Positions 2,397-63,706 of a DNA stretch of 64,000 nt are shown in pieces. The position numbers and the translations under genes are program-made. Each line of letters opens with the position of its first letter. Position 1 is the first letter of the stretch. The DNA is taken from positions 7,252 to 71,251 of the forward strand of contig DAIDMW010000002.1 of NCBI GenBank assembly GCA_027448785.1. Direction: 5' to 3'. This DNA is from Candidatus Colwellbacteria bacterium. Lineage in GTDB: Bacteria; Patescibacteriota; Minisyncoccia; UBA6257; Colwellbacteraceae. The notes below the pieces were generated by a model that had not been told where the DNA came from, did not search any database, and worked only from the letters and a program-made list of their open reading frames with translations.

Positions 2397-2570
2397 CTCA
2401 AAGAGCGAAAAAGCGCAGAGATAAAAGCGCAAAACTAAAAGCTAAAAGCGAAAAACAACGACTAAGGACTAGGGGTTAGGGACTGCGAATTAGGATTGCG
2501 GACTAAACCCTAATCCCCAGTCCCTAGTCCCTACATTAACTTTTGCGCTTTTAGCTTTGCGCTCTTAAGC
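2397..2570. repeat. Modular palindromic intergenic repeat, copy R1 (A-rich arm ...aaagcgcaaaactaaaagctaaaagcgaaaaac; T-rich arm ttttgcgcttttagctttgcgctctt; inner core gcggactaaaccctaatccccagtcc)
   Basis: Arms are near-perfect reverse complements. The 26-nt core at 2498-2523 recurs exactly at 63630-63655. Confidence 0.8.
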
Positions 2571-2873
2571 CGATATCTTCTCGATCTGCACCTCGGTGAA
2601 GTGCTGGCGGTGGGTGTTTTTAGTCCGCTTCCTAGTCTTGGAATGATAATGGAAAACCACCTCCTTGCGCGTGCGCCCCTGGCGCAGTATTACCGCCTCG
2701 GCCTTCGCTTTCAAATAAGGCATTCCGATCTTCACCTCTCCGCCATCGGCGAAAAGAAGCACCTTGTCAAAAGATACCTTGTCGCCGGCTGCTCCGGCCA
2801 GCTTCTCCACCTTAACCTTTGTTCCGGGTTCGGCTTTATACTGCTTTCCACCCGTCTCGATAATCGCGAACAT
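2565..2873 (-). CDS. rplU: 50S ribosomal protein L21
   Basis: 102 aa, MFAIIETGGKQYKAEPGTKVKVEKL..., a typical L21 sequence. Confidence 0.9.
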   Translation of the reverse strand: MFAIIETGGKQYKAEPGTKVKVEKLAGAAGDKVSFDKVLLFADGGEVKIGMPYLKAKAEAVILRQGRTRKEVVFHYHSKTRKRTKNTHRQHFTEVQIEKISA

Positions 2874-2916
2874 AACAAGGACAGTATAGCGGCTCGCCCG
2901 TTTGCCGTCAATCAGG

Positions 2917-3246
2917 CTAATTGAGCCGCACGAGCATTATTGAAAAGGCCAGAAAGAAGACCGACGAGGCTAAAGCGCCGGCTATCAGAAGGTAAGAGAG
3001 GAACTTAGCCGAACGGTAAAGAGCGGACGCCAAAAACCAGCTGCCGGCGGCAATCGCCAGGCCGGTAATGAAAATAAAAGACAGGGATTCCCAGCCGCCG
3101 GCCACCGCCAAACCGCTCAGAGTGTCGTATCTTATGACGAAAGGCCCGCTCTGGTCGCGCAGGGCGGATAGCGGCCAGCCGATAGCGATAAAAGTCAAAA
3201 GGAGGCTAAGAGCCGCCGCACCGACCAATTTCCTGTCATGCCACAT
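2917..3246 (-). CDS. Small integral membrane protein (about 4 TM), hypothetical
   Basis: Hydrophobic ORF. The annotated ORF start overlaps tRNA-Glu, so the start was moved to the MWHDRKL Met. Confidence 0.5.
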   Translation of the reverse strand: MWHDRKLVGAAALSLLLTFIAIGWPLSALRDQSGPFVIRYDTLSGLAVAGGWESLSFIFITGLAIAAGSWFLASALYRSAKFLSYLLIAGALASSVFFLAFSIMLVRLN

Positions 3247-3258
3247 TTTTTTTGATAG

Positions 3259-3333
3259 TACCGTTACCGGGATTCGAACCCGGGTTCCATGGCTGAGAAC
3301 CATGTGTCCTGGACCAGGCTAGACGATAACGGC
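3259..3333 (-). tRNA. tRNA-Glu (anticodon CTC)
   Basis: Hand-folded cloverleaf: acceptor gccgtta/taacggt; D-arm tcgtctagcctggtccaggac resembles E. coli tRNA-Glu; anticodon stem catgg/ccatg with loop ttCTCag; T-arm ccggg-ttcgaat-cccgg. No encoded CCA. Confidence 0.8.
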
Positions 3334-3390
3334 TGAAGCTTCCGCATTATACCAGATAGCTTAAAAAACGCCAGAGTTTCCGCACTTTAT

Positions 3391-4677
3391 CTATCCCCGC
3401 AGCCAGTGCCCGTACTGCCTGACCAGGAGTTTCGAGGCCTTTTCCGGCTCGGCCATTATCTCCAAAACGATTTTCTCCATCCGCGCCGACTGCGACCCCT
3501 TTATCAGGATCAAGTCTTTGGGTTTTATGAGATCCTGCACCTTCTTTTTCGCCTCATCAGCGGAGTCGAAACTCCAAACTGCCTCCTCCGGCAATCCTTT
3601 TTCAACCGCCCCCTTGGCGATGAATTTCGCTTTGACCCCGACCGTCACCAGGATGTTCACGGTTTCCGCCGCGACAGCTCCGGTGTCTTCGTGGGCGGAA
3701 GCCGTATATTTACCGAGCTCCGACATGTCGCCCAAGACGGCAATCTTCCGCGGGGCGGGAATCTCTTTTAATATCTCCAGCGCCGACCAGGTCGAAAGCG
3801 GAGAAGCGTTATAAGTATCGTCGATTATGTATGAATCTTTCACACCCGGCAGTATCCTCGCGCGTCCGCGCTCTCCGGGATAGCGGGCCAGCGCCTCCGA
3901 TATTTGAACCAGGTTCAATCCCTGGGATATCCCGACCGCCGCCGCCGCCGCGGCGGCGTACGCGTGCGGCTTCCCCAAAACTCCGTCGATACGCACCGGC
4001 ACGAAACCCCCTCCGTACTCCAGCTTGAAAACTATGCCGGTCGGCCGACCATCCTCGCTCTTGTTTTCAAATCCCGAGATCCGCATCGACGCCCCTTCCT
4101 TGAAGCCGAAGGTTATCACTTTTGACTTGGTTTTCTCCTTCATCTCGAAAACATACGGATCGTCATAGTTCAAAATAGCGAATCCGTTGCCGTTCAAGCT
4201 GCGCACCAAGCGCGATTTTTCCGTGGCCACCTCTTCGGCATCGTTGTAAAACTCGACATGGACGGGGACGGCGCCGACCGCGGTTACCACCGCCACCTCC
4301 GGGCGTACGATCTCCAGAAGATAACCGATATCCCCGGGGCGGTCGGCTCCGTACTCCAAAACTATCGCTTCGGGATAAGGAAGGCGGAAAATCAGCCAGA
4401 CAACAGCGCGACCAACGACTTTCAGCCAAAAAAACGCTCCGCCCGAAGAGCTGTAGTCGCCGATGATCGCGAGTGGCAGACCCAGCTCGCTATTGAGATT
4501 GCCGGCCGGCATCCTCGTCTTATACTTGGAATTTAAAACGGCAGCCGTTGCCAGCTTGGTCGAAGTTTTGCCGACGCTGCCCGTGATTCCCACCACCAGC
4601 GGATGGTATCTTCTAATCAGCGCCTTTGCCAGGCGCTTTAGCAGTTTTTGCAGTTTTTTCAAAGCCCAGTTTCTCAT
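3391..4677 (-). CDS. murF: UDP-MurNAc-tripeptide--D-Ala-D-Ala ligase MurF
   Basis: 428 aa. P-loop GITGSVGKTSTK and the MurF-type motif AGNLNSELGLPLAIIG. Confidence 0.8.
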   Translation of the reverse strand: MRNWALKKLQKLLKRLAKALIRRYHPLVVGITGSVGKTSTKLATAAVLNSKYKTRMPAGNLNSELGLPLAIIGDYSSSGGAFFWLKVVGRAVVWLIFRLPYPEAIVLEYGADRPGDIGYLLEIVRPEVAVVTAVGAVPVHVEFYNDAEEVATEKSRLVRSLNGNGFAILNYDDPYVFEMKEKTKSKVITFGFKEGASMRISGFENKSEDGRPTGIVFKLEYGGGFVPVRIDGVLGKPHAYAAAAAAAVGISQGLNLVQISEALARYPGERGRARILPGVKDSYIIDDTYNASPLSTWSALEILKEIPAPRKIAVLGDMSELGKYTASAHEDTGAVAAETVNILVTVGVKAKFIAKGAVEKGLPEEAVWSFDSADEAKKKVQDLIKPKDLILIKGSQSARMEKIVLEIMAEPEKASKLLVRQYGHWLRG

Positions 4678-4678
4678 T

Positions 4679-6334: not shown

Positions 6335-6603
6335 TGTGGATTAACTTCTCTCACCAATCCATCCGCCGCGGCCAGATTCTTCAGATTGTTCGGATCGGTT
6401 ATTTTGTAGAATTGATCTTTCAGCTCAGCATTTTTCACCTGCGCATTCTGCACTGATTGCGTTAGGCTTGCGATATCCTGACTGACACTGACTGTTCTAG
6501 AATAAATAATTATGGTGAGTGAAGCAACACCGACCAGCAGGCCGCTGAGGATGATTATCAGCTTTAAGATTCCGCTGTCTTTGTTTGGTTGAATTACCGT
6601 CAT
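6310..6603 (-). CDS. FtsL-like / septum formation initiator family protein
   Basis: 97 aa with a single TM and a coiled-coil tail. It sits between rsmH and ftsI, the conserved dcw order. Confidence 0.6.
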   Translation of the reverse strand: MTVIQPNKDSGILKLIIILSGLLVGVASLTIIIYSRTVSVSQDIASLTQSVQNAQVKNAELKDQFYKITDPNNLKNLAAADGLVREVNPQWAFVSRS

Positions 6604-6624
6604 CTCTCTTTGCTTTCTTGTTTC

Positions 6625-7545: not shown

Positions 7546-7548
7546 AGG

Positions 7549-7980: not shown

Positions 7981-7994
7981 TAGGTTGATGTCAC

Positions 7995-8046: not shown

Positions 8047-8298
8047 ATTCCCCACTTACATGTAAGTTTACCCATCCTAACCGCTTAAGTCAAAATACGG
8101 ACAAACGCCGGCCCGTACGGAAAAAAGCTTTTATTCAAAGGAAAAAATAAGCTTATAAGCGTATAGGAATAAGTTATCAACAGATTGGTACAAAAAAGGT
8201 TCTTCCCCACCTAGGAAAAAGAAAGCGTAAAAGGCAAAACGCGACCAGCTGTTAGTCGCCGGTTCTTTTGCGCTTTAAGTTTCGCGCTTTTTGTCGAA

Positions 8299-8373
8299 TG
8301 GTGGGCAATACTGGATTCGAACCAGTGACCCCTTGTGTGTGATACAAGTGCTCTGCCACTGAGCTAATTGCCC
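8299..8373 (-). tRNA. tRNA-Val (anticodon CAC), CCA encoded
   Basis: Cloverleaf: acceptor gggcaat/attgccc; D-arm gctcagtggcagagc; anticodon stem cttgt/acaag with loop atCACac; T-arm actgg-ttcgaat-ccagt; 3' CCA present. Confidence 0.8.
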
Positions 8374-8426
8374 CGCTGGAGATTAAAGACTAGTGACCAA
8401 CGCCAATCACCATAAAAACATTATAA

Positions 8427-8454
8427 ACCAAAAAGCGCCTTGGATAAAGGCGCT
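8427..8454 (-). terminator. Rho-independent terminator after rplL
   Basis: Hairpin agcgcctt-ggata-aaggcgct, followed on the minus strand by a T-run (tttttggttta). Confidence 0.6.
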
Positions 8455-8475
8455 TTCTTGGCAAAATTAAGTCTT

Positions 8476-13077: not shown

Positions 13078-15201
13078 TCAAAGCTTGGCGGAAGTTTGCC
13101 CTTCCGGAGACAGCTTTAGCGAGAGGATGCGTGACGCTCCTTCGGGGGTCATTGTCACTCCGTAGAGGATGTCTGCCGCCTCCATAACAGCGCGATTATG
13201 AGTGACGATTATGAACTGTGTCTTGCGGGCAAACTTCTTGATCATCTCCCCTAAGCGGCGGGCGTTGCGCTCATCGAGGGTCGCGTCGATTTCGTCTAAA
13301 ACCAGGAAGGGCGGCGGACTGACCGAAATGAGGGCGAAGAGCGCGGCGATGGAAACCAAACTCTTCTCCCCGCCGGAAAGCGCTTCGAGGTTCTTGATGC
13401 GCTTCCGCGGCAGATCGATGTCTATCTCCACCCCCGGGACCCGGTCCGCCTCCGCTGCACCATTCTCGCCTAGACCGGTCTCGACTTTCTCCATGCTCAG
13501 ACGTCCGCTGCCTCCGTCAAACATTATCTTCATAAACTTATCGAACTCTTCGTTAATCGATTTGAATGCCGCGGAAAAGTTTTCGTGAATCTGGCCGTCC
13601 AGCTCTTTAATGAGCGTCTTTAGGTCGGCAATCGACTTTTCCAGATCGGAAACCTGGCTCACCAGAAACTCATGCCGAGCCTCTGTCTCCTCCGCCTCTT
13701 TCACCGTCCCTTGGTCGATATCCCCGATCGAGGCTAGTTCCTGACGGTAGCGCAAAATCTGGCGTTTAACCGCCTCGCGCTCCTCTTCCGGAAAACTTCC
13801 GACGCCTTCCTTTACCTCGCCGATGCTGCGCCCAGCCTCGGACAGCTCACGCGCAATCTCCTGGAGGCGAAACTCGAGTCTTTCCTTATTCAAAAGCAAA
13901 CGGTTCAACCGCTGAATGAAGGCCTCGGTTTCCCTTTTCTTCCCCTCAAGCGTCAAAAACGCCTGGCGGAACTTTTCGTTAAAATCACGAATGCCGGAGC
14001 TGAAACCCTCTTCATCTTTTTCCAGCTCAGCCATTCCTTTCTCAAGTTCGGCAATCTTTTCGGCGATAAGCCGTCTTTCTTCTCCGGTATCGGGGATCTC
14101 CTCGCGGCGCTCGTCGGTTTCCCTAAATAGCTCTGACAGCGATTCGAGTTTTCCCCGAACTGCCGCAAAGTCCTCCTCACGCAAGGCTTCGCCGATAAGG
14201 CGCTTAGCCTCGGCCACTATCTCTTTCAATCTGACGACATCGACTCCACCTTGGCGCGCGCCGATTTCCAGCCTCGCCTCGATTCGACCTAATTCTTTCT
14301 GCAACTCGCCTTTCTTGGCCAGTAAATCGTCCTTGCGCAGCTTGATGAATTTCAGCGACTCGGCCGCCGCCGGCTCCGAATTCTTGATACGGATCAACTC
14401 CTCTTCCGATGTTCTCTCTTCTTCTTTCTTCAGAGAGATTTCTCTCTCCACCTCCTGGCGTTCCTTCTCCAGCTCAGACAATTCGCGATTGATGCTCCAA
14501 ACTTGCCCGCCGTAAAAGCGATCTTCCAATTCTGTAAGCGACTGCATTATCGCTTCGCGATTTCGGTAGCGCGTCACCTGGCGCCGTAAAAAGCTAAGAT
14601 GCGGCTTGATCTCTTCGATCAGGGCCGCAGCTTTCTCCAGGTTATCCTCAGAGTTTTTCAGACGGCGTTCGGCTTCGGCTTTCTTCAAACGGAACTCCTT
14701 CAATCCTAGGATCTCTTCTATCATCACTCGGCGCTCCATCGGCAGCGAGCGGATGAAAATGTCGCTCTCCCCCTGATTGACCGTGGTGAGCCCGCGAGCG
14801 CCCAGCCGCGACTTGGCGAAAAAATCGATGATATCCTTCAGCCTGACTTCCGACTTATTTAAAAAAACCTGCGTAGTCCCGTCTCGGCTGATGCGGCGGG
14901 ACACTGAAACCTCATTGAAATCAACCGGAAAGAATCCGGTAGAGTTGTCGAAGAATAGCGTGGCCTGCGCCAGGCCGGCCCGCGACTTGTTCTGAGTGCC
15001 GGCAAAAATCAAATCTTCGGCGCGTCCGCTACGGAGGTTCTTCGCGTCGCGTTCTCCCAAAATCCAACGCAAGGCGTCAGTGATATTAGACTTGCCCGAG
15101 CCGTTCGGCCCGACTACGGCTATTATGTTGCCGTCGAGATCGAGAGTGATTTTATCGGCAAAGGACTTGAATCCCTGCAGCTCAAGGCGTTTAAGAAACA
15201 T
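13078..15201 (-). CDS. smc: SMC-family chromosome segregation ATPase, unusually short (707 aa)
   Basis: N-terminal head FKSFADKITLDLDGNIIAVVGPNGSGKSNITDALRWILGE; C-terminal signature LSGGEKSLVSIAALFA and Walker B LVLDEIDATLD. The middle is coiled-coil-like with no recognisable hinge. It follows rnc, the conserved rnc-smc arrangement. Confidence 0.8.
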   Translation of the reverse strand: MFLKRLELQGFKSFADKITLDLDGNIIAVVGPNGSGKSNITDALRWILGERDAKNLRSGRAEDLIFAGTQNKSRAGLAQATLFFDNSTGFFPVDFNEVSVSRRISRDGTTQVFLNKSEVRLKDIIDFFAKSRLGARGLTTVNQGESDIFIRSLPMERRVMIEEILGLKEFRLKKAEAERRLKNSEDNLEKAAALIEEIKPHLSFLRRQVTRYRNREAIMQSLTELEDRFYGGQVWSINRELSELEKERQEVEREISLKKEEERTSEEELIRIKNSEPAAAESLKFIKLRKDDLLAKKGELQKELGRIEARLEIGARQGGVDVVRLKEIVAEAKRLIGEALREEDFAAVRGKLESLSELFRETDERREEIPDTGEERRLIAEKIAELEKGMAELEKDEEGFSSGIRDFNEKFRQAFLTLEGKKRETEAFIQRLNRLLLNKERLEFRLQEIARELSEAGRSIGEVKEGVGSFPEEEREAVKRQILRYRQELASIGDIDQGTVKEAEETEARHEFLVSQVSDLEKSIADLKTLIKELDGQIHENFSAAFKSINEEFDKFMKIMFDGGSGRLSMEKVETGLGENGAAEADRVPGVEIDIDLPRKRIKNLEALSGGEKSLVSIAALFALISVSPPPFLVLDEIDATLDERNARRLGEMIKKFARKTQFIIVTHNRAVMEAADILYGVTMTPEGASRILSLKLSPEGQTSAKL

Positions 15202-16978: not shown

Positions 16979-17199
16979 GTATAGCGCAAAGGAAGCGTAA
17001 AGATAAAAGCGCAAAGCGCAAAAGAACGAAAATTCTAAATCTGAAATACTAAATCTGAAACAAATTCGAAATTGTAAATAAGAAATCACAAACACGGACG
17101 TGTTTAGGAAGCGCAAAACTAAAAACTAAAAGCGAAAAACAACAATAGATCGTCAGTTGTTAATTCTTTTGCATTTTGCGCTTTTAGGTTTGCGCTTAT
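16979..17199. repeat. Modular palindromic intergenic repeat, copy R2
   Basis: Left arm aaagataaaagcgcaaagcgcaaaag...; right arm cttttgcattttgcgcttttaggtttgcgc. Inner motifs gaaacaaattcgaaatt and cacaaacacggacgtgtttagga are shared with R4 and R10. Confidence 0.8.
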
Positions 17200-18458
17200 T
17201 GTGGCTTCTCGGTGTTGTAAATGTCCTGGATCTGCGTGGAAGTCAGAGCAGCGTCAAATAATTTAGCCCTATCCAGCTCGCCACTCCAGAACTCGTGATA
17301 GCTCCCATAAAAATCGGCGCCGAAAGCAAGTGGATTAGTAGAACTATAGTTGATTGTCCCGCCGGGTAATGCGCCTTGCGCAACCAAGTTGCCGTTAACA
17401 TACAAGTATTGACCCGTCTCGGTAACGACATACGCTATAAAAGTCCAAGAGTTGAACGGAACGACATAAGAGGAATCGCCAATCCATTGCCATCCTCCAT
17501 TGGTAAAACTGACGCTCGCTCCAGGATTACAAGAAGGATTGAGCAGGATCCTCGGTCCCGGGTCGGCGGCCATTATATACATCCCCTCATTGCTTCCGCA
17601 GGAAGTTACCGGATCGATCCAAATAGTTTCGCTTAGCGGAGGGTTTATTTGGGTAGAGGTTGGTAGACTTATATAATCGTCGGTTCCGTCAAAAAGATAA
17701 CAATACCCTTTTACGCACCCTTGAACCTTATGAAACGGACCCGTACCCGTTGATGTCGCGTCACCTAAAATTCCATTATTATTTAAGCCAGACGAATCAA
17801 CCGTTACCGCTCCGACTCCAGACGCAAGATTATCAAACTCCCAACTACCAACTAAACCGTGTAAAAACGGCGTAAGCGCCAAGTCGTTGCCAACTTCATA
17901 AGTGGTCGGATCGACGCCGCCGTCAGCGGCGGCCGTCGCCTGGTACTTATTTGACTCAAAATAAGCCGTTAACTCGTAATTAGTGCCGTTGGTCGCGTAA
18001 GTATAATACTCTCCGCCGGTCGGCGAGTTTGTCGGATCGACCGGCAAAGCCGAGATCGGCGAACCGCCCGGAATTTGCGAGAGGTTGACCGGCATCCAGC
18101 CTGTGCCGTTCGTATTGAATAAGTTTTGCTGCGAAACGCAGTTGTAGGTCCAGCCCGTCGGTAGCGCCGGCAAACCTAAAGAGGAACAGGTCGAGGTCTG
18201 GCTGCCGGTCAGAGTCGGGTCGGGCAAGGAGACATAAACGACATCCGGCGATCCCAAACCCGTAGCGCCGGGGCCTTGGTAGATATACGAAGCGACAGCC
18301 TGGTTAATGGAACCTAAATCCCCTATCCGGCGCACGTCGCGCCCCTGTGCCAAAAGCTGCGCCGGATTTATCACCAAAACGACCGTCGCCGCCATAATGC
18401 CGATGAGAGTTATCGTTATCAAAAGCTCGACGAGAGTAAAAGAGTCTTGTGACCTCAT
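17196..18458 (-). CDS. Type IV pilin-like protein with a C-terminal LamG/concanavalin-like jelly-roll domain
   Basis: N-terminal prepilin-like segment SFTLVELLITITLIGIMAA. The C-terminal 200 aa (LVGSWEFDNL...GNGILGDA...FDGTDDYISLP...WTFIAYV...LYVNG...) is a LamG-like pattern. Lies outside the main pil cluster. Confidence 0.65.
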   Translation of the reverse strand: MRSQDSFTLVELLITITLIGIMAATVVLVINPAQLLAQGRDVRRIGDLGSINQAVASYIYQGPGATGLGSPDVVYVSLPDPTLTGSQTSTCSSLGLPALPTGWTYNCVSQQNLFNTNGTGWMPVNLSQIPGGSPISALPVDPTNSPTGGEYYTYATNGTNYELTAYFESNKYQATAAADGGVDPTTYEVGNDLALTPFLHGLVGSWEFDNLASGVGAVTVDSSGLNNNGILGDATSTGTGPFHKVQGCVKGYCYLFDGTDDYISLPTSTQINPPLSETIWIDPVTSCGSNEGMYIMAADPGPRILLNPSCNPGASVSFTNGGWQWIGDSSYVVPFNSWTFIAYVVTETGQYLYVNGNLVAQGALPGGTINYSSTNPLAFGADFYGSYHEFWSGELDRAKLFDAALTSTQIQDIYNTEKPQ

Positions 18459-20410
18459 CGGATGGCAAAACTGAACTTTCTCTTTAATTGGTTTATGATC
18501 GACGCTGCCTCCCTTTCCGCCTCCTCATCGCGCAACGTTTTATCCCATGCCTGAAAAACCAGGCGCAGGGTGAAGCGACGCTGGTCGTAATAGTCCGTGA
18601 CGTCGACGTCCCAAAGGTGCTCGGCCTTCGCGCGGTTTATCTCCTCCAATACGTCCCCCACGGGAACCGCGCTGTCGAATTCCAAAGAAAGGTCGCGGCT
18701 GATGGACGGATATTTAGGCAGCGCTCGGTATTCAAATTCCTCCGACGAGGCGTTTTTTATTTCTTCCAAATCCAGCTCCGCTACGGCGCGGCGGTCCCTG
18801 CCGTCAACCACACCGATGCGGCCGACGACGTTGTGGTCGATCTCAATCAAGGTCGATTCGCTCCCCGATGGGCGGAAAAATATTTCCGTTATCCCGAAGC
18901 TTAATAAAAGCTGGTTGACCACTCCTTTCAACGCGGGCGAAGCCGCCTTATCCTTGGAGCCGAAGCCGATCGTTAAATGAAAGCGCTCTCCGGCTGCACT
19001 AAAGACTTTTCCAACCTCGAAAATGCGCAGCTCGTCGAAGTGCCGAGAGTTGTCTTGCAGCGCCGCAAGCATGTAACTGGTCAGCTCTCCCCGCAAGTAT
19101 TTTTTGTCGCTGGCAATCGGGTTTTGGATCTCCAACAAGGTTTTCTCTTTCGGCGAAGAAGACCAGATCCAATCCGACGACGACCGGCCGAAAAAGGAAT
19201 AGGAATAGATTTCGCTGAACCCCAGATTGCGCAGGAAATCCCTGGTTCTCCTTTTGGCCACCAGTATATCGTCGGTTTCCGCGGGTTTCAGGGAGACGTG
19301 CGGGGGCCGCGACGGTATATTGTCGTACCCGTAGATGCGTCCCACTTCTTCGATCAGATCCTCCATTGTCTGCAGATCGCGGCGGAGAACCGGAGTCTGA
19401 ACGAGGAAGTCAAAGCGCTTGTTTTTGGATGTTAAAATCGCCATTCCCAGCTTCTTCAGTATCGCCGCCGCTTCATTCTTCCTAATGGAAACTCCGAGAA
19501 CGCTTGCCGCTTTTTCGGCGCTGAAGCCGATTATCTCGCTCTTGGCCGCCCTCGGATAATAATCGAGCGAGTCGATCACCTTCCCGCCGGCCAGCTCCTT
19601 TACCAAGTAAGCCGCGCGATTGGCGCAGTACTCCGCCAGCTCCGGACTGAGATCTCTCGAAAAGCGCGCCGAAGCATCGGTTACAAGGTTTAATCGTCTG
19701 GAAGTGGAATAAACCGACGGAGCCAGGAAGTTCGCCGATTCGATGACGATTTTTCTTGTCGAAGAGTCGATCTCCGCCTTTCTTCCCCCTTTTATTCCGG
19801 CAATCGCCAAAATTCCGTCTTTGTCGGCTATTACCAGATCGCCGGCGGACAGCTGGTATGTTTTTCCGTCCAAAGCTTCCATTCTTTCCCCGGCCTTGGC
19901 GCGGCGGACAATTATTTTTTTACTTTTGCCTTCTCCGGCAATTTTGTCGTAATCGAACGCATGCAGAGGCTGGCCGGTTTCGAGCATCGCGTAATTCATT
20001 ATATCGACGATCAAGCTGATCGGTCGCAAACCGCAAGTCTCCAGCCGCTTTTTCAGCCAAGCCGGAGAAGCCGATTTTTTTTCAAGAGAAAGAAGGACGG
20101 CGTCATACCTTGAGCAAAGCCCGGGATCCTCCACCTTAATCAAAAGGAGGTTGTTTCCGGATGGCACGTTGACCGCGCGGCCGAAACCGGCCGGAAGCGA
20201 AATCTTTATGTCAAAAATAGCCGACGCTTCCTTGGCTATGCCCCAGTGCGAAGCGGCATCGGCGTAGCGATTGGCCGGCAAAGAAATATCCAGGGCGTCT
20301 CCCTCCAATACCTCTGCCTCGAACGCCTTCAAATTAAGCTCTTCGACCAGTCTTTTTTTCGGCGGAAGCTGCGGTGCGAATTCTTTTAATAAAGAGTAGC
20401 TGAACTTCAT
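18455..20410 (-). CDS. pheT: Phenylalanine--tRNA ligase beta subunit (short, lacks N-terminal tRNA-binding OB domain)
   Basis: 651 aa. B3/4, B5 and anticodon-binding-like regions are present. Immediately downstream of pheS. Confidence 0.85.
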   Translation of the reverse strand: MKFSYSLLKEFAPQLPPKKRLVEELNLKAFEAEVLEGDALDISLPANRYADAASHWGIAKEASAIFDIKISLPAGFGRAVNVPSGNNLLLIKVEDPGLCSRYDAVLLSLEKKSASPAWLKKRLETCGLRPISLIVDIMNYAMLETGQPLHAFDYDKIAGEGKSKKIIVRRAKAGERMEALDGKTYQLSAGDLVIADKDGILAIAGIKGGRKAEIDSSTRKIVIESANFLAPSVYSTSRRLNLVTDASARFSRDLSPELAEYCANRAAYLVKELAGGKVIDSLDYYPRAAKSEIIGFSAEKAASVLGVSIRKNEAAAILKKLGMAILTSKNKRFDFLVQTPVLRRDLQTMEDLIEEVGRIYGYDNIPSRPPHVSLKPAETDDILVAKRRTRDFLRNLGFSEIYSYSFFGRSSSDWIWSSSPKEKTLLEIQNPIASDKKYLRGELTSYMLAALQDNSRHFDELRIFEVGKVFSAAGERFHLTIGFGSKDKAASPALKGVVNQLLLSFGITEIFFRPSGSESTLIEIDHNVVGRIGVVDGRDRRAVAELDLEEIKNASSEEFEYRALPKYPSISRDLSLEFDSAVPVGDVLEEINRAKAEHLWDVDVTDYYDQRRFTLRLVFQAWDKTLRDEEAEREAASIINQLKRKFSFAIR

Positions 20411-21596: not shown

Positions 21597-21665
21597 CAAA
21601 AAAAGCGCAAAACGAAAAGCGCAAAGCTTAAAACAAGATTTTTCAATTTTCGCTCTTTTGAGCTC
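21597..21665. repeat. Partial copy R3 of the palindromic repeat family (aaagcgcaaaacgaaaagcgcaaagcttaaaac ... ttttcgctcttttgagc)
   Basis: Shares the AAAGCGCAAA units. Directly abuts the 3' end of tRNA-fMet. Confidence 0.6.
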
Positions 21666-21859: not shown

Positions 21860-21985
21860 ATGGCAGTTGGCTCGAACCAGGAAGGTGTCGGGAAACCGGG
21901 AGGTTTCCTGTGGCGGAACACACAAACCGAGGGGTTTGTGGGAGTCCGCCGTCCGCCAACTAGCGGAGGCGGACGACGAGACGAC

Positions 21986-22008
21986 TTCGAGCCCCACCCC
22001 TGGCACCA
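21986..22008 (+). repeat. 23-bp exact duplicate of the tRNA-Met 3' end (ttcgagccccacccctggcacca; T-loop, acceptor 3' strand and CCA)
   Basis: Identical to 21791-21813. The two copies bracket a structured 172-bp spacer. Confidence 0.8.
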
Positions 22009-22208
22009 AAAAGCGCAAAGCTTAAAGCGCGAAATGCAAAATAACGAAAGCTCGAAATCATAATATCGAAATACGAAACAAATTCGAAATTACAAATTTT
22101 AAATCACAAACCCGTTTGTGTTTAGGATTTCGAATTTCGTGCTTCGAATTTGCCTAGCTGCTAGCCGTTGTTTTTAGCTTTTAGTTTTTAGTTTTGCGTT
22201 TTTCGCTG
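22008..22208. repeat. Modular palindromic intergenic repeat, copy R4
   Basis: Left arm aaaagcgcaaagcttaaagcgcgaaatgcaaaataacgaaagc; right arm gttgtttttagcttttagtttttagttttgcgtttttcgc. Inner motifs gaaacaaattcgaaattacaaat..cacaaacccgtttgtgtttagga and gcctagctgctagccg (the latter is the reverse complement of the R10 inner motif). Confidence 0.8.
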
Positions 22209-24275: not shown

Positions 24276-24320
24276 ATTCGCATCTTAGCACATCGCCAAG
24301 CCTTCCGGAACAGACGAGTT

Positions 24321-24361
24321 TAAAATAAAAGCGGCTTTCCTTATTTCAAGAAAAGCCGCTT
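24321..24361 (-). terminator. Rho-independent terminator after the orphan 173-aa gene
   Basis: Hairpin aagcggctt-N14-aagccgctt, followed by a T-run on the minus strand. Confidence 0.55.
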
Positions 24362-24401
24362 AGGACGATTGTTTTCCGACAGTGGAAGCAGGTTTCACAC
24401 T

Positions 24402-24923: not shown

Positions 24924-25064
24924 GCCTCCTTTGGCTCAGATTGGACTTACATTGTATCACAGATTCGCGGACTGTGAAGTGGCCGCCTTCGACGCGACTA
25001 AGGGATTCTTCTCTGCTATTTCCGTATATCCTCGCCGCTTGTGGCGAGGTATCAACTTACAGTA

Positions 25065-25160
25065 ATCCTTCGCCGCGGCTCAGGATATTTTCGGCATATC
25101 CCCGCCGCGGCTCAGGATATTTTCGGCATATCCCCGCCGCGGCTCAGGATATTTTTATCT
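25065..25160. repeat. Tandem direct repeat, 32-bp unit ATCCCCGCCGCGGCTCAGGATATTTTCGGCAT x3 (copy 1 degenerate, copy 3 partial)
   Basis: Contiguous copies at 25065-25097, 25098-25129 and 25130-25156. Preceded by the related hairpin cctcgccgcttgtggcgagg (25029-25048). Confidence 0.85.
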
Positions 25161-25190
25161 ATTATTTCCACTTGCGACGATGTATTGCAG

Positions 25191-25226
25191 ATAAAAATAA
25201 AAAGGAGCCTCTCAGAGAGAGACTCC
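25191..25226 (-). terminator. Rho-independent terminator after the 3D-domain gene
   Basis: Hairpin ggagcctctc-aga-gagagactcc (9 of 10 bp), followed on the minus strand by tttttatttttat. Confidence 0.65.
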
Positions 25227-25236
25227 AGCCGAAAAA

Positions 25237-25875: not shown

Positions 25876-25956
25876 ACTATTAAGGAACTAGAATCCTTAT
25901 AGCAGCAAAAAACCGCTTTGTCAAGTGCCGGAGCGGGTTTTTCGGCTTTTAGCCGC

Positions 25957-31747: not shown

Positions 31748-31853
31748 GTGCAAAACTTAAAGCGCAAAATAACGGAGCGCAAAGCTTAAAGCGCAAAATG
31801 CAAAAGAATTACGTTGTTATTTTTCATTTTTAGCTTTTCGCTTTGCGTTTTTT
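31748..31853. repeat. Modular palindromic intergenic repeat, copy R5
   Basis: Left arm caaaacttaaagcgcaaaataacggagcgcaaagcttaaagcgcaaaatgcaaaag; right arm ttatttttcatttttagcttttcgctttgcgtttttt. Confidence 0.75.
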
Positions 31854-34182: not shown

Positions 34183-34300
34183 TAACGGTTGGTGGCTAGT
34201 GGATAAAAAAACCAAACTCAACGCCCTTATTATTAGGGTACTGAAATTTAGTGGTGGTGCTTAAATGTTTAGTATTTCGGATTTAGGATTTTAGATTTTT
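34183..34300. repeat. Divergent copy R6 of the intergenic repeat family (contains gatttaggattt / atttcggattt units) plus the 14-mer ggttggtggctagt
   Basis: Shares the gatttaggatttcgg motif with R8 and R10. The 14-mer at 34183-34196 recurs at 58988-59001. Confidence 0.55.
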
Positions 34301-38742: not shown

Positions 38743-38782
38743 TTACGAATAAATTATACAACATAAAAAAGGAAATGGCAGA

Positions 38783-38872
38783 AAAAGCGCAAAATAAAAA
38801 CTAAAAGCGAAAAAGAAATAATAACGGACTACTTATCGTTGTTTTTCGCTTTTAGCTTTTAGTTTTGCGCTC
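38783..38872. repeat. Modular palindromic intergenic repeat, copy R7
   Basis: aaaagcgcaaaataaaaactaaaagcgaaaaag ... gtttttcgcttttagcttttagttttgcgctct. A near-perfect palindrome between the divergent pilM and comFC. Confidence 0.8.
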
Positions 38873-38874: not shown

Positions 38875-39606
38875 ATGTATAATGTAGTCATGCCCTCCTT
38901 TTGGAGTAAAGCCGGCGCCGGCGCTTTCGACCTTCTCTTTCCGCCGCTCTGCCCTGTTTGCCGCAAAGAGTTGACCGACCCCAAGGAAAAATCGCTATCT
39001 CTCTGCCTTTCCTGCTTCTCCTCTCTGGAAGTGAATGAAAACTTTTTTCGCATTCCGCTACCCTACCATCGGGAAAAATCCGGAGGAGTGTTTATTCTCG
39101 GCGCCGGCACCCGCTACGACTCCCCTTTCGCCGCCAAGATTATTCACTCCCTGAAATACGAGGACTGTTTTCTGCTGGCCAAGCCTCTGGCTGAACTTAT
39201 CTTCCGCCATTTGGAGCGCTCCGGATTGGCGCGGCTAATCGAGCGCGAAGAGTTTATAATCACTTCCGTTCCACTCCATCGCCGGCGCCTGATAGACCGG
39301 GGCTATAATCAAGCGGAGCTAATCGGGCGAGAACTATCTCTCTTAACCGGTCTGCCGATCGCCGATCTTCTTCTTCGTACGCGACCAACCATGGAACAGG
39401 CCAAAATCTCCGACCCCGAAGAAAGAATGAAAAATGCCAAAGGCTGCTTTTCGATAAACAGCAAATCAAAGTCTTCTCCTTCGGGAAAAAGGATACTGCT
39501 CGTCGACGATGTCTTCACAACCGGAGCCACTATGTTCGAGGCGGCAAAATGCCTATACCGATTCGGCGCGCGGCTGGTCGTCGGTCTCGCGGCAGCCAAA
39601 GCCTAA
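38875..39606 (+). CDS. comFC: Competence protein ComFC (phosphoribosyltransferase-like)
   Basis: N-terminal zinc-finger cysteines (CPVC...C..C) and the C-terminal PRTase motif LLVDDVFTTGATM. Confidence 0.85.
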   Translation: MYNVVMPSFWSKAGAGAFDLLFPPLCPVCRKELTDPKEKSLSLCLSCFSSLEVNENFFRIPLPYHREKSGGVFILGAGTRYDSPFAAKIIHSLKYEDCFLLAKPLAELIFRHLERSGLARLIEREEFIITSVPLHRRRLIDRGYNQAELIGRELSLLTGLPIADLLLRTRPTMEQAKISDPEERMKNAKGCFSINSKSKSSPSGKRILLVDDVFTTGATMFEAAKCLYRFGARLVVGLAAAKA

Positions 39607-39790
39607 AAATGCAAAACTAAAAGCTAAAAGCGAAAAAATAACGGCCAGGCAAGCGCAAGATTTAAAAGATCCGACGACTAACGACCTACCGTTATTTTAC
39701 GCTTTACGCTTTTCTCTTTGCGCTTTTAAATTTGTTTCGGCTTTCTGATTTAGGATTTCGGATTTTCGTTATTTTTCCTTTTGCGCTTAT
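39605..39790. repeat. Modular palindromic intergenic repeat, copy R8
   Basis: Left arm aaaatgcaaaactaaaagctaaaagcgaaaaaataacgg; right arm ccgttattttacgctttacgcttttctctttgcgcttttaaattt, plus the gatttaggatttcggatttt motif. Confidence 0.8.
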
Positions 39791-42030: not shown

Positions 42031-42164
42031 TAATTATTACTCTCCTTGCCTCTTAAAATCAATCGCCACAAAAACCGTTTTTTGACAAAACCGATGCCTT
42101 GGCCTAACGTCTCTATACCCTTAATCGGGATGGATTTGAACCTCTATAAAAGGAGAGTGATCAG

Positions 42165-43109: not shown

Positions 43110-43123
43110 GAGAGGACTTAAAA

Positions 43124-43157
43124 GCCCGAGGCATTCCGCCCCGGGCCTTTCTTTTTT
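43124..43157 (+). terminator. Rho-independent terminator after the deacetylase gene
   Basis: Hairpin gcccgagg-N7-ccccgggc, then ctttcttttttat. Confidence 0.55.
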
Positions 43158-43172
43158 ATCCTATGATTCTTA

Positions 43173-55898: not shown

Positions 55899-55945
55899 CT
55901 TTAGTTTTATTTTTAATTTTACGCTTTAAGCTTTGCGCTCTTAAT
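55899..55945. repeat. Partial copy R9 of the intergenic repeat family (T-rich arm ttttaattttacgctttaagctttgcgctctt)
   Basis: Same arm motif as R1 (ttttgcgcttttagctttgcgctctt). Lies at the rpoD 3' end. Confidence 0.55.
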
Positions 55946-59083: not shown

Positions 59084-59125
59084 GTAAAATAAAAAACTAC
59101 CGCTTCTGGATATACCTTCCGCAAG
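59084..59125 (-). terminator. Candidate terminator downstream of ddl
   Basis: Imperfect hairpin ccgcttctgg...ccgcaagcgg, followed on the minus strand by tagttttttatttt. Confidence 0.4.
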
Positions 59126-59154
59126 CGGCGAGGTGTTGTGGATGAAATAAAAAA

Positions 59155-60120: not shown

Positions 60121-60184
60121 CGTTTAAAGTATAGTTTAGCGGCCGAGTTCAAAGCAAACGCGTTCGAACGCTTTTACCGAATAT

Positions 60185-60634
60185 TTATTCGACGGATCTG
60201 GCCACTTTCCAGCCATCCAAACCGAAATACAATCCTGCGTTCAAATAACGCAAAACAAGCAGCGCAGCCGCGTAAATAATATGCTGGTCGACTAGAAATC
60301 CGTTCGGAACCAAGGGTAAGCTGTTCGCGGCAAAATAATAGAGAAGCATCATGATCGCTCCGAGAAGCGAAGCGATTCTCAACCAGAAGCCGAAGATTAG
60401 CGCAAGGCCGATCAGCATCAACCCCCATTCGTTAGCCACGTTCACCAGACCTATGAGAAGCGGATGGGCTAAGAAGGAATAAAAGCCACTGAAAGTCTTC
60501 GCGCTTTCAAGGAAGCTGGTGGCCGTCCACGAAGCGTTGAGTATCTTGGTTATACCGGCATAAAAGAACAGCCAGCCGAGAAGAATCCTCAAGACAGCGA
60601 CCGCTGTCTTCTGCGACTTGCTTAAATTAAGCAT
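60185..60634 (-). CDS. DoxX-family membrane protein
   Basis: 149 aa with four TM helices and the DoxX-like pattern LRILLGWLFFYAGITK. Confidence 0.6.
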   Translation of the reverse strand: MLNLSKSQKTAVAVLRILLGWLFFYAGITKILNASWTATSFLESAKTFSGFYSFLAHPLLIGLVNVANEWGLMLIGLALIFGFWLRIASLLGAIMMLLYYFAANSLPLVPNGFLVDQHIIYAAALLVLRYLNAGLYFGLDGWKVARSVE

Positions 60635-60654
60635 ATCAATTTAAGCATAACTCA

Positions 60655-60872
60655 AAGAAGCGCAAAATAAAAAGCTAAAAGCGAAAAACAACGGCTAGTA
60701 GCTAGCCAAATCCTAAACTTTAAATCCGAAATCCTAAACAAACTCCAATTTACAAATTCCAAATACGAAACACGAATGGGTTTGTAATTTGAGATTTGAT
60801 ATTTCGAATTTGTTTCGGATTTCGATATTAGGATTTCCGATGTTTTGCCTTTTTCGCTTTTAGTTTTGCGCT
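60655..60872. repeat. Modular palindromic intergenic repeat, copy R10 (largest, with a nested inner palindrome)
   Basis: Left arm aaagaagcgcaaaataaaaagctaaaagcgaaaaacaacggctagtagctagcc; inner palindrome ccgaaatcctaaacaaa...gaaacacgaatgggtttgtaa...atttcgaatttgtttcggatttcg; right arm ttttgcctttttcgcttttagttttgcgcttct. Confidence 0.85.
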
Positions 60873-60875
60873 TCT

Positions 60876-62879
60876 CTATCTTTTTACCCTCAGCGCCAAG
60901 GCATTGAAAACGACGATTATCGAACTCAAACTCATAAGCAGCGCTCCCCACTCCGGACGAAGAAAGATTCCCCATGGAGACAAAACTCCGGCCGCTATCG
61001 GAATGGCCAGCGCATTGTATCCCGCCGCCCACGCCAAATTTTCCATCATCTTGCGCATAGTTCTTTTACTTAGCCTCAGCAAGTAAAGAACTCCTCGCAA
61101 ATCACTCTCGGCTAAGATGGCATCGGCCGACTCTATGGCGACCTGCGTCCCTCCACCAATTGCCACACCAACATCTGCCTGCTTAAGGCTTGGGGCGTCG
61201 TTCACGCCGTCTCCGACCATCGCTACTAAATTTCCTTTATCCTGCAGCTGCTGAACGATTGACATTTTATTTTCCGGCAAGACCCCGGCAAAATAGAGAT
61301 CGATGCCGAGCGCGGATGCCGCGCGTGCGGCCGCCTCTTCATTATCCCCGGTAATCATCGCTGTTTTAATGCCCATCCGCTTAACGGTCGAAATAACCTC
61401 TTTCGCCTCAGGCCGCAACTCGTCGGCCATCGCCAATATTCCCAGAATTTCTTTTTTGTTCGCCACCCAAGCTAGGCTCTTGCCCTGCCCTGTCAGGCTA
61501 TTGGCCGCATCTTTCCAGGCCGCCACGTCCAGGCCGACGTCCTTAATATATTCCTCGTTGCCGACGAAAATGATTTGGCCTAAAACCTCTCCGCTCCCTC
61601 CCTTGCCGGCAATTGACTGGTAATTATTGGCCGGGCCGAAACTCATGCCTCTGCTGCTTGCCGCTCTGACGATAGCCATGGCGATGAAGTGCATCGAGTT
61701 TACCTCGATCGACGCCGCGGCGCGCAGCACTTCTCCCTCGCTCGTTGTTCTGTTCGGCACGATATCCGTTACCGTAAACTCACCGCTGGTGAGCGTTCCG
61801 GTCTTGTCGAAAACCAGATAGGTTAGCTTGTTCAGCTTTTCGACGGCCTGACCGTCTTTGATCACCACTCCGTTTTTCGCCGCCAGCGAAGTAGCGATCG
61901 TGGTAACCGTGGGAATGGCCAAACCCAAAGCGTGCGGACAAGCGATAACGACGACCGTTATCGCTAGAGTAAGAGCAAACAGCGTCCCATGCGGAGAAAT
62001 AAGATTCCAAAATATAAAAGTCAAAACCCCTCCGCCTAAAGCGGCAATGGTCAGGTAGTTTGCGGCACGATCCGCTAATCTTTCTATTTTCGGACGCGAG
62101 TTCTGCGCCTGTTCGACTAAAGCGGCGACCTGAGCCAAAAAAGTTTCGCCGCCGGCGCGGTTAACCTTGATCGTCAGCGAACCATCATAGTTGACGCTAC
62201 CGCCAATCACTTCGGCGCCGACATCTTTTTTAACTGGCTTTGATTCGCCGGTTAAAAGCGCCTCGCTCACCGACGAAGAACCTCCGACGACTGCCCCGTC
62301 GGCGGGTATTTTTTCGCCCGGGCGCACCATTATCCTGTCTCCTTTGTGCAGGTTAAAACTATCGACGTCTATCACTGAAGAGTCTGAAACAAGATGTGCC
62401 CTCGGAGGAGTCAAGCTCAGCAGTTCGCCGAGGATGCTGCTTGTTCCGCTTACTGCCTTCATTTCTAGCCAATGCCCAAAAAGTAAAATCACTACCAAAG
62501 TCGAGATCTCCCAGTAAAAATCCGGGCCAAAAAAAAGAAAAGTGCTGCCAACGGAGAAAAAGTATCCGGACGCGACCGCCACCGCAACCAAAGTCATCAT
62601 TCCGTAATTCCGCGATTTTAATTCAGAGAATGCTCCGAAAAAAAACGGCCAGCCGCCGTATCCGACGACCAGCGAAGAAAGCGCGAAAGAAATATACGCC
62701 GCGTAGCTGGGCTGGAAAGAAAAACGCAAAGCCTCCTGCACGACCGGCGCCAGCAAAACCACCGGCAAAGACAAGACTAAAGAAATGACAAATCTCTTCT
62801 TAAAATCCTCGGCCATCATCGCATGATGGTTGTGATGGGAGGCGTGACCGATACTTGCAGCCTGTACATTCATCTCCAT
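60876..62879 (-). CDS. P1B-type heavy-metal ATPase, CopB-like (CPH motif, His-rich N-terminus, no HMA domain)
   Basis: 667 aa. TM6 CPH ([10 protein letters not shown]), [13 protein letters not shown], and N-terminal HASHHNHH. Confidence 0.85.
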
Positions 62880-62902
62880 GCCTTTATTATAGCGCGCCAG
62901 TT

Positions 62903-62990
62903 AAGAGCGCAAAGCTTAAAGTGCAAAGCGCAAAAGAACGATCCTAACGAAACGAGTTATTGTTTTTCGCTTTTAGCTTTTAGTTTTGCT
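62903..62990. repeat. Modular palindromic intergenic repeat, copy R11
   Basis: agagcgcaaagcttaaagtgcaaagcgcaaaagaacg ... ttgtttttcgcttttagcttttagttttgctct. Confidence 0.8.
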
Positions 62991-62993
62991 CTA

Positions 62994-63527
62994 TCAGAAT
63001 TCCAGTCCCTCCTCCGCATGCTTTCCCTCCTGGTAGGGATGTTTAATTTCGCGCATTTCGGTAACCAAGTCGGCTAGGTCGATGACGTCTTGATCGGCGT
63101 CGCGGCCGGTAAGAAGAAGATGAAATTTTTTAACTTTCTGCAGTTCTTTTACCTCGGCTAAATCCTTCAACACCTCCTCTTTAGAAATAAGTCCCAATTT
63201 CAACGCCACATTGAACTCGTCGGCGATAATAAGATAGTAGCGCAGCGAGCGCGCTGAATCCATCACGCCTTTCCAGGTGTTCTGTGCCGCTTCTTGGTGC
63301 TCCTCGAAAGGCAGTTTGTCACCTAGGATGCCGACGAAGCCCTTGCCGCCTTTAATAATCTTGAACCATTCGCCGAAAGCTGGCGCGACCTTGTCTTCTC
63401 CCGAGATCCACGGCCCCTTGATGAACTGATACATCACCGCCCGCTTGCCATCGCCAATGGCTCGCAAAGCTTGGCCCAAGGCTGCCGTCGTTTTTCCCTT
63501 TCCATTGCCGGTAAAAACTACGATCAT
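62994..63527 (-). CDS. ATP:cob(I)alamin adenosyltransferase (CobA/CobO/BtuR family)
   Basis: 177 aa. P-loop VFTGNGKGKTTAALG and the IADEF motif. Confidence 0.8.
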   Translation of the reverse strand: MIVVFTGNGKGKTTAALGQALRAIGDGKRAVMYQFIKGPWISGEDKVAPAFGEWFKIIKGGKGFVGILGDKLPFEEHQEAAQNTWKGVMDSARSLRYYLIIADEFNVALKLGLISKEEVLKDLAEVKELQKVKKFHLLLTGRDADQDVIDLADLVTEMREIKHPYQEGKHAEEGLEF

Positions 63528-63547
63528 TTAAAGAAGTATAGAGGAGA

Positions 63548-63706
63548 AAGCGAAAAGCACAAAACAAAGAAGTGTAAAGTTCAAAGCTAAAAGCGAAAAA
63601 CACTTGCTAGGGACTACGAATGACGGATGGCGGACTAAACCCTAATCCCCAGTCCTTAATCCCCACTTTAACTTTTGCGCTTTTCGTTTTGCGCTTTTAA
63701 TTTTGC
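63548..63706. repeat. Modular palindromic intergenic repeat, copy R12 (homologous to R1, same 26-nt core)
   Basis: ...caaagctaaaagcgaaaaacacttgctagggactacgaatgacggatggcggactaaaccctaatccccagtcc...acttttgcgcttttcgttttgcgcttttaattttgcg. The core at 63630-63655 is identical to 2498-2523. Confidence 0.85.

Follow-up and report, generated by a model that had tools for sequence, protein, structure and literature searches.

What are the long palindromic repeats that recur between genes in a 64,000-nucleotide stretch (the window) of a Candidatus Colwellbacteria genome (contig DAIDMW010000002.1, positions 7,252 to 71,251), and do they serve the genes beside them or spread on their own account? A sequence-only reading of this DNA had listed 12 copies of a dispersed, modular, palindromic family at transcription-unit boundaries. 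It proposed that they are bidirectional terminators or insulators spread in the manner of REP/BIME, Correia or miniature inverted-repeat transposable elements (MITEs). The family itself is confirmed, since repeats are present at the listed places and their motifs occur far above chance. It has a periodic structure and nested parts, is anchored at gene 3′ ends, turns over rapidly, has homologous copies across phyla and is polymorphic for presence and absence. We lean towards regarding it as a non-autonomous, mobile or recombining family of foldback repeats, of the kind of the cyanobacterial STRR and small dispersed repeats (SDR), which lands or persists at gene 3′ ends.

The window contains 13 elements, all intergenic, with a total length of 1,703 bp and a GC content of 36%. 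They occupy 2.7% of the window, close to the 3% estimated earlier. All 12 sites of the first list hold repeat sequence: ten are foldback structures, R6 and R9 are single arms, and a thirteenth copy (R13) had been missed. The span first given for R6 (34183-34300) includes sequence that is not part of the element. The statement that almost every gap above 80 bp carries a copy was too broad. Among the gaps of at least 55 nt, all of which were listed, 23 exceed 80 nt and 13 of these carry an element; the other gaps often contain ordinary terminators made of an A-run, a GC hairpin and a T-run (for example 8374-8475, 24276-24401, 25876-25956 and 43110-43172). The 10-mer AAAGCGCAAA is found 17 times in the window, compared to 0.49 expected, and 16 of the 17 matches are intergenic. 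The 19-mer arm AAAGCTAAAAGCGAAAAAC, allowing three mismatches or fewer, is found 24 times compared to 0.11 expected. Further words of the family are GAAACAAATTYGAAAT and the 40-mer AAAGCTAAAAGCGAAAAACCATAATTCAAAACTCAAAAC. The density in this lineage is about one element per 3 kb, and about 100 arrays were found in 117 kb of loci from the close relative SKS1.bin112, these loci having themselves been chosen by the 19-mer.

The elements are built on a seven-nucleotide lattice. Tandem Repeats Finder reports a period of 7 or 14 in almost every one of them, and 329 of 573 parsed units are exactly 7 nt long. The self-identity of the elements reaches 0.516 (lag 7) and 0.455 (lag 14), compared to 0.268 and 0.237 for element-free intergenic DNA. 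The units of 11, 14 and 20 nt described earlier are, according to these periods and the autocorrelation, tandem heptamers. The arms consist of AAAAGCG, AAAGCGC, AAAAGCT, AAAACTA and like units. Two sorts of inner module are recognized: the "C" modules repeat AAATCCN, AAATTCG and AAATCAC, with GGATTTN as the mirror unit, and the "G" modules repeat GGGACTA, GGGATTA and GGGGTTA, with CCCTAAC and CCCTAGT as mirror units. An element opens with A-arm heptamers and a junction ending in AAAAACAACG (...AAC AACG), followed by a centre, by CGTTGTTTTTC and by the complementary T-rich arm heptamers. The centre is either a loop of 10-20 nt (R5, R7, R11, R13) or a set of nested cassettes, of the G type in R1 and R12 and of the C type in R2, R4 and R10. 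These cassettes are themselves heptamer palindromes, and the centres of R4 and R10 also hold a small GC hairpin, GGCTAGYRGCTAGCC. Periodic arms pair in any register shifted by 7 nt, so that the hairpin survives slippage whether the elements are mobile repeats or host terminators.

Not all of the sequence is periodic. The G cassette carries an asymmetric core of 28 nt, TAGTCCGCCATCCATCATTCGCAGTCCC, present in 14 copies and on both strands in the window and its relatives, and flanked by variable numbers of GGGACTA/CCCTAGT units. The identical 26-nt core reported for R1 and R12 is an exact match. Other inner modules proved less widely shared: GAAACAAATTCGAAATT is exact in R2 and R4, but for GATTTAGGATTTCGGATTT and for GGCTAG(C/T)AGCTAGCC there is in each case a single exact occurrence and one approximate second copy. 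Repetition of a 28-nt core at many sites is beyond the reach of slippage, and the core must therefore be copied. Between co-oriented genes (n = 6) it is sense to its neighbours in three cases and antisense in three, thus revealing no constraint from the RNA strand. In loci of other phyla, 50 of 52 adjacent array pairs run from A-arm to T-arm, the other two being T-then-A. Since this order is expected of a single palindromic family read in either orientation, it is not evidence of function.

The window region was compared with further loci, designated by L numbers. It recurs in several independent assemblies with 99.6-100% identity. This recurrence, together with the gene content, assigns it to a genome of the Candidate Phyla Radiation (CPR, or Patescibacteria) and not to a chimera, a concern that had accompanied the first description. 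Chimeric joins at low-complexity sequence, made during assembly or binning, would account for the many contigs that end inside elements. However, the same elements lie at the same sites, fully spanned and with flanks 99.6-100% identical, in at least eight independent assemblies, and the chance that the family is such an artefact is negligible.

Close relatives display the instability suspected earlier, with gain and loss of units, loop deletion and cassette exchange at fixed sites. R8 has lost one 7-nt unit in L124 (flanks 99.6% identical, contig spanning the element), R7 has an 11-nt loop deletion in L127 (flanks 99.8% identical, spanned), and single substitutions within elements are seen in L125, L138 and L144. 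At 85-90% flank identity, element interiors are replaced. In L142, R1 has an extra heptamer (+7 nt) and a matched T/A double insertion that keeps pairing. In L131, R8 gains a C cassette and R7 a G cassette with (GGGGACT)4; as R7 has none in the window, the latter is an insertion polymorphism. In L012, R10 is without its C cassette, the G cassette that R12 has in the window is replaced by a C cassette, and the length of R11 is greater by about 34 nt, divided over two blocks of 8 and 26 nt. The element-free divergent gap at 42031-42164 is well conserved in the same relatives. At greater distance (L132, 72-84% nucleotide identity), all four pil/comF sites are occupied by elements with different centres, and a similar half-array stands at the R6 site.

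The family extends beyond this lineage. An exact-match scan with the 19-mer, using one genome per species, returned at least 107 loci. About 18 of those listed are from SKS1.bin112, and L012 is syntenic with the window at 56.7-63.6 kb. A minority are chance matches within genes (Vibrio, Photorhabdus and others), and most of the other listed loci belong to Atribacterota (at least 15 metagenome-assembled genomes, MAGs, and a single-cell genome), Omnitrophota, Planctomycetota and other CPR groups. Among the matches listed, 29 of the 83 non-relative loci continue the 19-mer with exactly CATAATTCAAAA and several more with close variants, and the arm with its 20-nt extension recurs in Atribacterota and Omnitrophota. 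An element from Phycisphaerae (L066) aligns with R4 and R10 over the whole composite, that is A-arm, C cassette including CGAAATCCGAAACAAATTTGAAATT, and T-arm; the adjacent gene has homologues 87-94% identical, named only from Planctomycetota. CPR relatives with 51-74% PilM identity are mostly without this heptamer "dialect", A/T heptamer arrays being found only in L115. The 19-mer was encountered once, and (GGGGACT)3 four times, in 2.9 million viral contigs, and this rarity makes carriage by phages unlikely. We found no description of such elements in the literature on Atribacterota or CPR bacteria.

Other heptamer palindromes occupy equivalent gaps in some related genomes: AATTTTC/GAAAATT in L109-114, TAGAATT/TAGGATT with (GAGAATT)7 in L120, and CTAGAAC/CTGGAAC and GTAGTTG/CTACTCA in L121. 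Atribacterota copies (L001, L026, L076, L084 and others) are nested inside outer palindromic layers of different heptamers (TAGTCGT/TAGTGAA, AGCGTAT/AGCGTTT and CAATTGAC-like units), the order of nesting being reversed relative to the window. In the Atribacterota contig L002, a 6S RNA gene (2898-3133, 81 bits) has an element about 130 nt upstream of it (2678-2764).

Filled and empty alleles were found at one site in planctomycetes, between a nucleotide-sugar dehydrogenase gene and the next glycosyltransferase gene. The two genes are co-oriented and their proteins are 90-100% identical among the genomes compared. The gap is 20-27 nt long in L155, L156 and L158. It contains a 235-nt composite of AAAAGCN arms and a C cassette in L066 and L152-154, and an unrelated heptamer palindrome of 225 nt, with GCTAAAG/CACTTTAG arms and TCCAGTY units, in L157. 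In both filled states the dehydrogenase has a different C-terminus, with its TAA stop codon supplied by the first arm unit of the element. These alleles show that sequence was inserted or replaced at the 3′ end of a gene, in what appears from relatives to be a single operon. Only the L066 copy is bordered by a direct repeat, AGTAA. The empty alleles of L155 and L158 have an A-rich tail, AAAAAGCAGTAAAGTAAAATAGAGAAATCGATAT, in which AGTAAAGTAA provides two copies of AGTAA within about 30 nt around the dehydrogenase stop; this tail could be a remnant, a footprint or chance.

These comparisons bear on another explanation, in which slippage expands the A/T tracts of terminators independently at each site, without common descent. 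Near-identical strains that differ by a gain or loss of exactly 7 nt agree with it, as do the different heptamer dialects of related genomes. Heptanucleotide repeats are, moreover, the commonest class of long simple-sequence repeats in prokaryotes according to Mrazek (2007), as cited in PMC4679880. However, non-periodic sequence is common to loci and to phyla, namely the 28-nt G core, the 40-nt arm extension and the composite architecture, and one site has both filled and empty alleles. We therefore regard purely local expansion as very improbable.

The position of the elements relative to genes was determined with crude calls of open reading frames (ORFs) in the window and 15 SKS1.bin112 loci. 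Complete elements fill 8 of 13 convergent, 24 of 57 tandem and 3 of 10 divergent gaps, all three arrangements having been noted before. The median distance from the edge of an array is 6 nt to the adjacent stop codon and 42 nt to the adjacent start codon. Of the 13 copies in the window, 12 reach or overlap a stop codon or the 3′ end of a tRNA or RNA, and the far ends of the elements halt just ahead of promoter-like boxes. Starting at stop codons and tRNA 3′ ends and ending just upstream of -10 boxes would suit bidirectional intrinsic terminators or insulators, as proposed at first, if these function for the host and their repetition results from common function and slippage. The more frequent filling of convergent than of divergent gaps points the same way, but the difference is not significant on these counts. 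Moreover, R7 is an exception to the anchoring at 3′ ends: it separates the divergent starts of pilM and comF, where no transcript needs an end.

TGTATAAT boxes are located just outside both ends of R7. TATAAT or TATACT, in some cases with an upstream TG, precedes pilM, comF, the P-type ATPase gene and the cobA-like gene, only 6-10 nt separating the box from the ATG. Boxes so near the ATG suggest leaderless or very short-leader mRNAs, to judge from their spacing, and for comF the second ATG (38890) is the probable start of the ORF. T-arms directly upstream of these boxes at R7 (on both sides), R11 and R12 would be in keeping with a role at the DNA level, in which phased A/T tracts would act as UP-element-like sites for the alpha subunit of RNA polymerase at neighbouring promoters, as nucleoid-protein sites or as uptake signals for the pilus and ComF. 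The window does encode PilB/T/C/M and ComF, and the copies are independent of orientation. However, the spacing between arm and -10 box is not fixed, and the inner cassettes are not A/T tracts. Known uptake sequences are also frequent inside genes, whereas the 10-mer is almost exclusively intergenic, and a DNA-uptake sequence was rejected on this restriction. A DNA-level role thus appears improbable.

The arms are rich in TAA in several frames. Such arms would make landing near a gene end harmless, and this would explain why the elements "abut" stop codons. In L011, L054, L027, L092, L058 and L078 the 19-mer is enclosed by 350-1000 codons without a stop, so that some long ORFs seem to run into an A-arm and to gain a tail rich in Lys, Ala, Ser and Glu before the TAA of the arm, consistent with TAA-rich arms being harmless at gene ends.

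Folding was evaluated with z-scores from mononucleotide shuffles, which flatter periodic sequence. R1, R2, R7 and R10 have clear potential to form long imperfect hairpins as single strands (z -4.4 to -9.6). Folding is moderate or weaker for R4, R5, R8, R11 and R12 (z -1.6 to -5.3), often unevenly between strands, and weak for R3; the single T-rich arms R6 and R9 do not fold. The hairpins proposed for the whole family are thus clear in only part of it. The asymmetry between G-U and A-C on the two strands served as a test for selection on the RNA: the transcribed strand folds better in five elements and worse in three, giving no clear direction. In R4 and R10 a GC hairpin is followed by a T-arm (TTGTTTTTCGCTTTT) in the direction of transcription. 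Only these small hairpins, found by scanning in R10 and by reading in R4, fit the Rho-independent consensus of a GC stem-loop and a U-tract. Terminator-like sites numbered 21, compared to 18.3 expected from shuffled sequence, and in a second scan 24 compared to 13.8 (sd 4.0), a surplus that is not clear in either case.

Termination or 3′-end protection by the elements is plausible from their position, their U-rich 3′ arm and the order of GC hairpin and T-arm in R4 and R10, but it is probably secondary. R7 and other copies in divergent gaps, the planctomycete copy inside an operon, the single arms and the lack of a transcribed-strand bias argue that termination is not the primary reason for the family. 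An origin as host terminators would agree with the occupation of all four pil/comF sites in L132, and with the plain A-run, hairpin and T-run that L108 has at the site upstream of pilM. It would not account for R6 and R9, which cannot fold, nor for the planctomycete copy between co-oriented genes that are 20-27 nt apart in relatives. It is also opposed by the use of ordinary compact terminators elsewhere in the same genome, the absence of a consistent fold-energy advantage on the transcribed strand and the equal numbers of sense and antisense G cores. We consider this origin rather unlikely.

A mobile or recombining foldback family would fit these observations in the following way. Copies would arise through insertion or ectopic recombination at gene 3′ ends. 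They would be tolerated there, bringing TAA stop codons in their arms and leaving promoters and coding sequence undisturbed, and the periodicity of the arms would keep pairing possible after slippage. Read from either side, a transcribed hairpin of 30-100 bp with a U-rich 3′ arm would probably attenuate transcription or protect the 3′ end. This effect would be a by-product that the host may exploit, and not the reason for the existence of the family.

Several points weigh against this interpretation. The elements compared have no fixed termini and no consistent target-site duplication, and their lengths vary from 47 to 221 nt. Neither a transposase nor another candidate enzyme appears in the gene lists for about 64 kb and the related loci. 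The persistence of occupied sites in L132 could equally reflect a functional need for the position. Among the most striking cassette swaps, three are less secure, as they lie at contig ends and are not spanned: those of R1 in L141 and L143 (two independent assemblies, flanks 99.7-99.9% identical) and that of R12 in L123. Finally, the comparison sequences are metagenome assemblies throughout, and the loci of other phyla were picked via the 19-mer itself, which biases their element content upward. More tentatively still, the repeats may represent a distinct class of hairpin mobile elements, defined by a 7-nt lattice, a preference for gene 3′ ends, a self-supplied stop codon and mutual nesting in loops. 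Such elements would have moved between at least four phyla (Patescibacteria, Planctomycetota, Omnitrophota and Atribacterota), a possible route being natural transformation of CPR cells followed by recombination via the periodic arms, and would then constitute the wider family that includes the cyanobacterial STRR and SDR.

The elements place an STRR-like design in a CPR genome that is streamlined and has little non-coding DNA. Their most interesting aspect is the occurrence of near-identical copies across four phyla. With filled, empty and replaced alleles at one site, 7-nt slippage events and a traceable 28-nt core, they constitute a tractable comparative system, which bears on the spread of tiny non-coding elements without an obvious transposase and on gene flow between CPR bacteria and other phyla. 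They also matter for annotation, since assemblies break at them and since they change the C-termini and stop codons of genes. Should transcription indeed end at them, they would represent an unusual kind of terminator that propagates itself.

Elements of the window and associated promoter-like boxes, with their parts, neighbouring genes and folding (MFE, minimum free energy).
Feature	Position	Structure	Neighbours	Folding
R1	2397..2570	A-arm ~2397-2456; junction AAAAACAACG; nested G cassette ~2463-2533 (GGGACTA/CCCTAGT heptamers); T-arm 2540-2570	T-arm overlaps rplU stop codon at 2565	MFE -68/-76 kcal/mol, z ~-9
R13	8196..8298	simple element	abuts 3′ end of tRNA-Val (8299-8373, minus)	z -1.7/-2.2
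R2	16979..17199	A-arm; C-type AAATxxx heptamer run 17029-17092; second A-arm 17115-17139; loop; T-arm	T-arm overlaps stop codon of gene 17196-18458	z -6.2/-4.4
R3	21598..21665	short, weakly pairing	begins at tRNA-Met 3′ end	z -2.3/-0.5
R4	22008..22208	A-arm; C cassette ~22060-22150, centre CACAAACCCGTTTGTG; GC hairpin GCCTAGCTGCTAGCC 22152-22166; T-arm	directly after unannotated RNA-like region ending CCA	z -4.7 on +
R5	31748..31853	simple	T-arm abuts pilC stop codon (31854)	z -5.3/-3.5
R6	34268..34300	half element: GGATTTn heptamer run	beside pilB stop codon	no fold
R7	38783..38872	simple 90-nt hairpin	between divergent starts of pilM (minus) and comF (plus)	z -9.3/-9.6
R8	39605..39790	A-arm, 50-nt centre, T-arm, extra GGATTTn run	between convergent genes, overlapping both stop codons	
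R9	55899..55945	half element: T-arm alone	overlaps rpoD stop codon (55941)	no fold
R10	60655..60872	A-arm; GC hairpin GGCTAGTAGCTAGCC 60693-60707; C cassette 60708-60842; T-arm	T-arm end 4 nt from stop codon of P-type ATPase gene	z -7.8/-8.4
R11	62903..62990	simple, loosely matching arms	ends 4 nt from stop codon of cobA-like gene	z -4.0/-1.6
R12	63548..63706	A-arms; G cassette with 28-nt core (63610-63637, minus); T-arm	T-arm ends 2 nt from next stop codon	
TATAAT/TATACT box regions	38753-38760, 38878-38892, 62880-62891, 63528-63545			

The window has a GC content of 52%, and nearly all of its genes (ORF calls being mechanical here and in the compared loci) are on the minus strand and packed in tight operons. 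They include murD/murF, a penicillin-binding protein gene, pheS/pheT, gatA, ligA, rpoD, ribosomal protein genes, a short SMC gene, and a type IV pilus cluster (pilB/T/C/M) with comF. The nearest named ComF homologues are from "Patescibacteria group bacterium" MAGs. The SMC protein (707 aa, 13078-15201) matches in its head domains and much of its coiled coil is absent, and PheT (651 aa, 18455-20410) is without the N-terminal part of its profile; such short forms are typical for reduced CPR genomes. Between tRNA-Met and R4, a segment of about 148 nt on the plus strand (21860-22007) ends in TTCGAGCCCCACCCCTGGCACCA and has a multi-stem fold (MFE -71.3 kcal/mol, z -4.0). It is conserved in L147 and L148, receives no ARAGORN call and has no Rfam match even at E<5; a divergent small RNA of CPR bacteria, SRP-like or tRNA-like, is a possible identity. 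The 313-nt gap 24924-25236 contains 2.7 copies of a perfect 32-nt tandem repeat, CGCCGCGGCTCAGGATATTTTCGGCATATCCC, at 25071-25155, and the near-identical strain L147 has one full copy fewer.

How do the elements compare with known systems? They resemble bidirectional Rho-independent terminators in the order of A-tract, hairpin and T-tract right after stop codons. They differ in their A/U-rich stems of 30-100 bp, with GC clamps every 7 nt, and in copies placed where no terminator is needed. Rfam gave no match to an element at the gathering score or at E<5 in the window, and none at E<1 in ten loci of other phyla; these searches returned only tRNAs, a 6S RNA and weak hairpins resembling miRNA precursors. 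An attC/integron or CRISPR assignment was rejected, the flanking genes being housekeeping genes (murD, rplU, pheST, rpoD, pil) and the spacing irregular.

With the REP/BIME sequences of Enterobacteria and Pseudomonas the elements share the form of extragenic mosaic palindromes at gene 3′ ends. The transcripts of REP/BIME sequences form hairpins, to which roles in mRNA stabilisation and termination have been ascribed. Here there is no REP unit of 20-40 nt with a conserved head but a heptamer lattice with much longer stems, and no RAYT (Y1 HUH) transposase was found among the Pfam-annotated genes of the 64 kb and the genome fragments. Like MITEs and the Correia elements of Neisseria, the elements are short, non-coding, dispersed and polymorphic in presence, may be able to affect transcription and have inverted-repeat ends, the arms serving as terminal inverted repeats in a loose, register-tolerant sense. 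They differ in having no defined termini, no consistent target-site duplication (no shared direct repeat was found in the flanks of R1, R7 and R11), a very variable length and no matching insertion sequence in the window and the related loci. The REP/BIME, Correia and MITE labels given at first are therefore not retained, and STRR and SDR are closer. Eukaryotic foldback elements are kilobase-scale, in some cases protein-coding, with long inverted arms of short tandem repeats. The likeness to them, by analogy alone, lies in inverted arms of variable-number short repeats, heterogeneous length and hairpin formation.

The TAACTGA heptamers of Beggiatoaceae, cyanobacteria and Bacteroidetes are direct repeats located just upstream of start codons, an inverted arrangement being exceptional, with one case in that genome (MacGregor 2015, PMC4679880). 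Our elements are likewise intergenic heptamer arrays common to distant phyla, with suspected horizontal spread and units that contain stop codons. The cyanobacterial STRR sequences consist of 7-bp units and form hairpins; their function is unsettled, transcript stability or translational coupling having been proposed (PMC2670836). The present elements have the tandem 7-nt unit, the dispersed intergenic location and the inverted, often hairpin-forming arrays of STRR. They differ in their hosts, which are Patescibacteria, with related forms in Planctomycetota, Omnitrophota and Atribacterota, and not heterocystous cyanobacteria. They differ also in their A/T-tract heptamer arms and in a strict nested palindrome anchored at stop codons. 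STRR heptamer repeats have been known in cyanobacteria since 1990, and we know of no accepted origin or function for them. The (GGGGACT)4 of L131, (CCCCAGT)n on the other strand, is presumably STRR1; a literature search on CCCCAGT found nothing relevant. The SDR of Nostoc and Anabaena, described by Elhai and colleagues in 2008, reportedly have a core of about 21-28 nt that occurs in both orientations, nested in heptamer or hairpin contexts. They reportedly show insertion polymorphism among relatives as well, and are not known to be associated with an enzyme. The likeness extends to the conserved 28-nt core, its two orientations, its heptamer context and its insertion polymorphism. The core sequence is unrelated and the phylum is another, and here the heptamer arms are part of a larger composite that is common to phyla.

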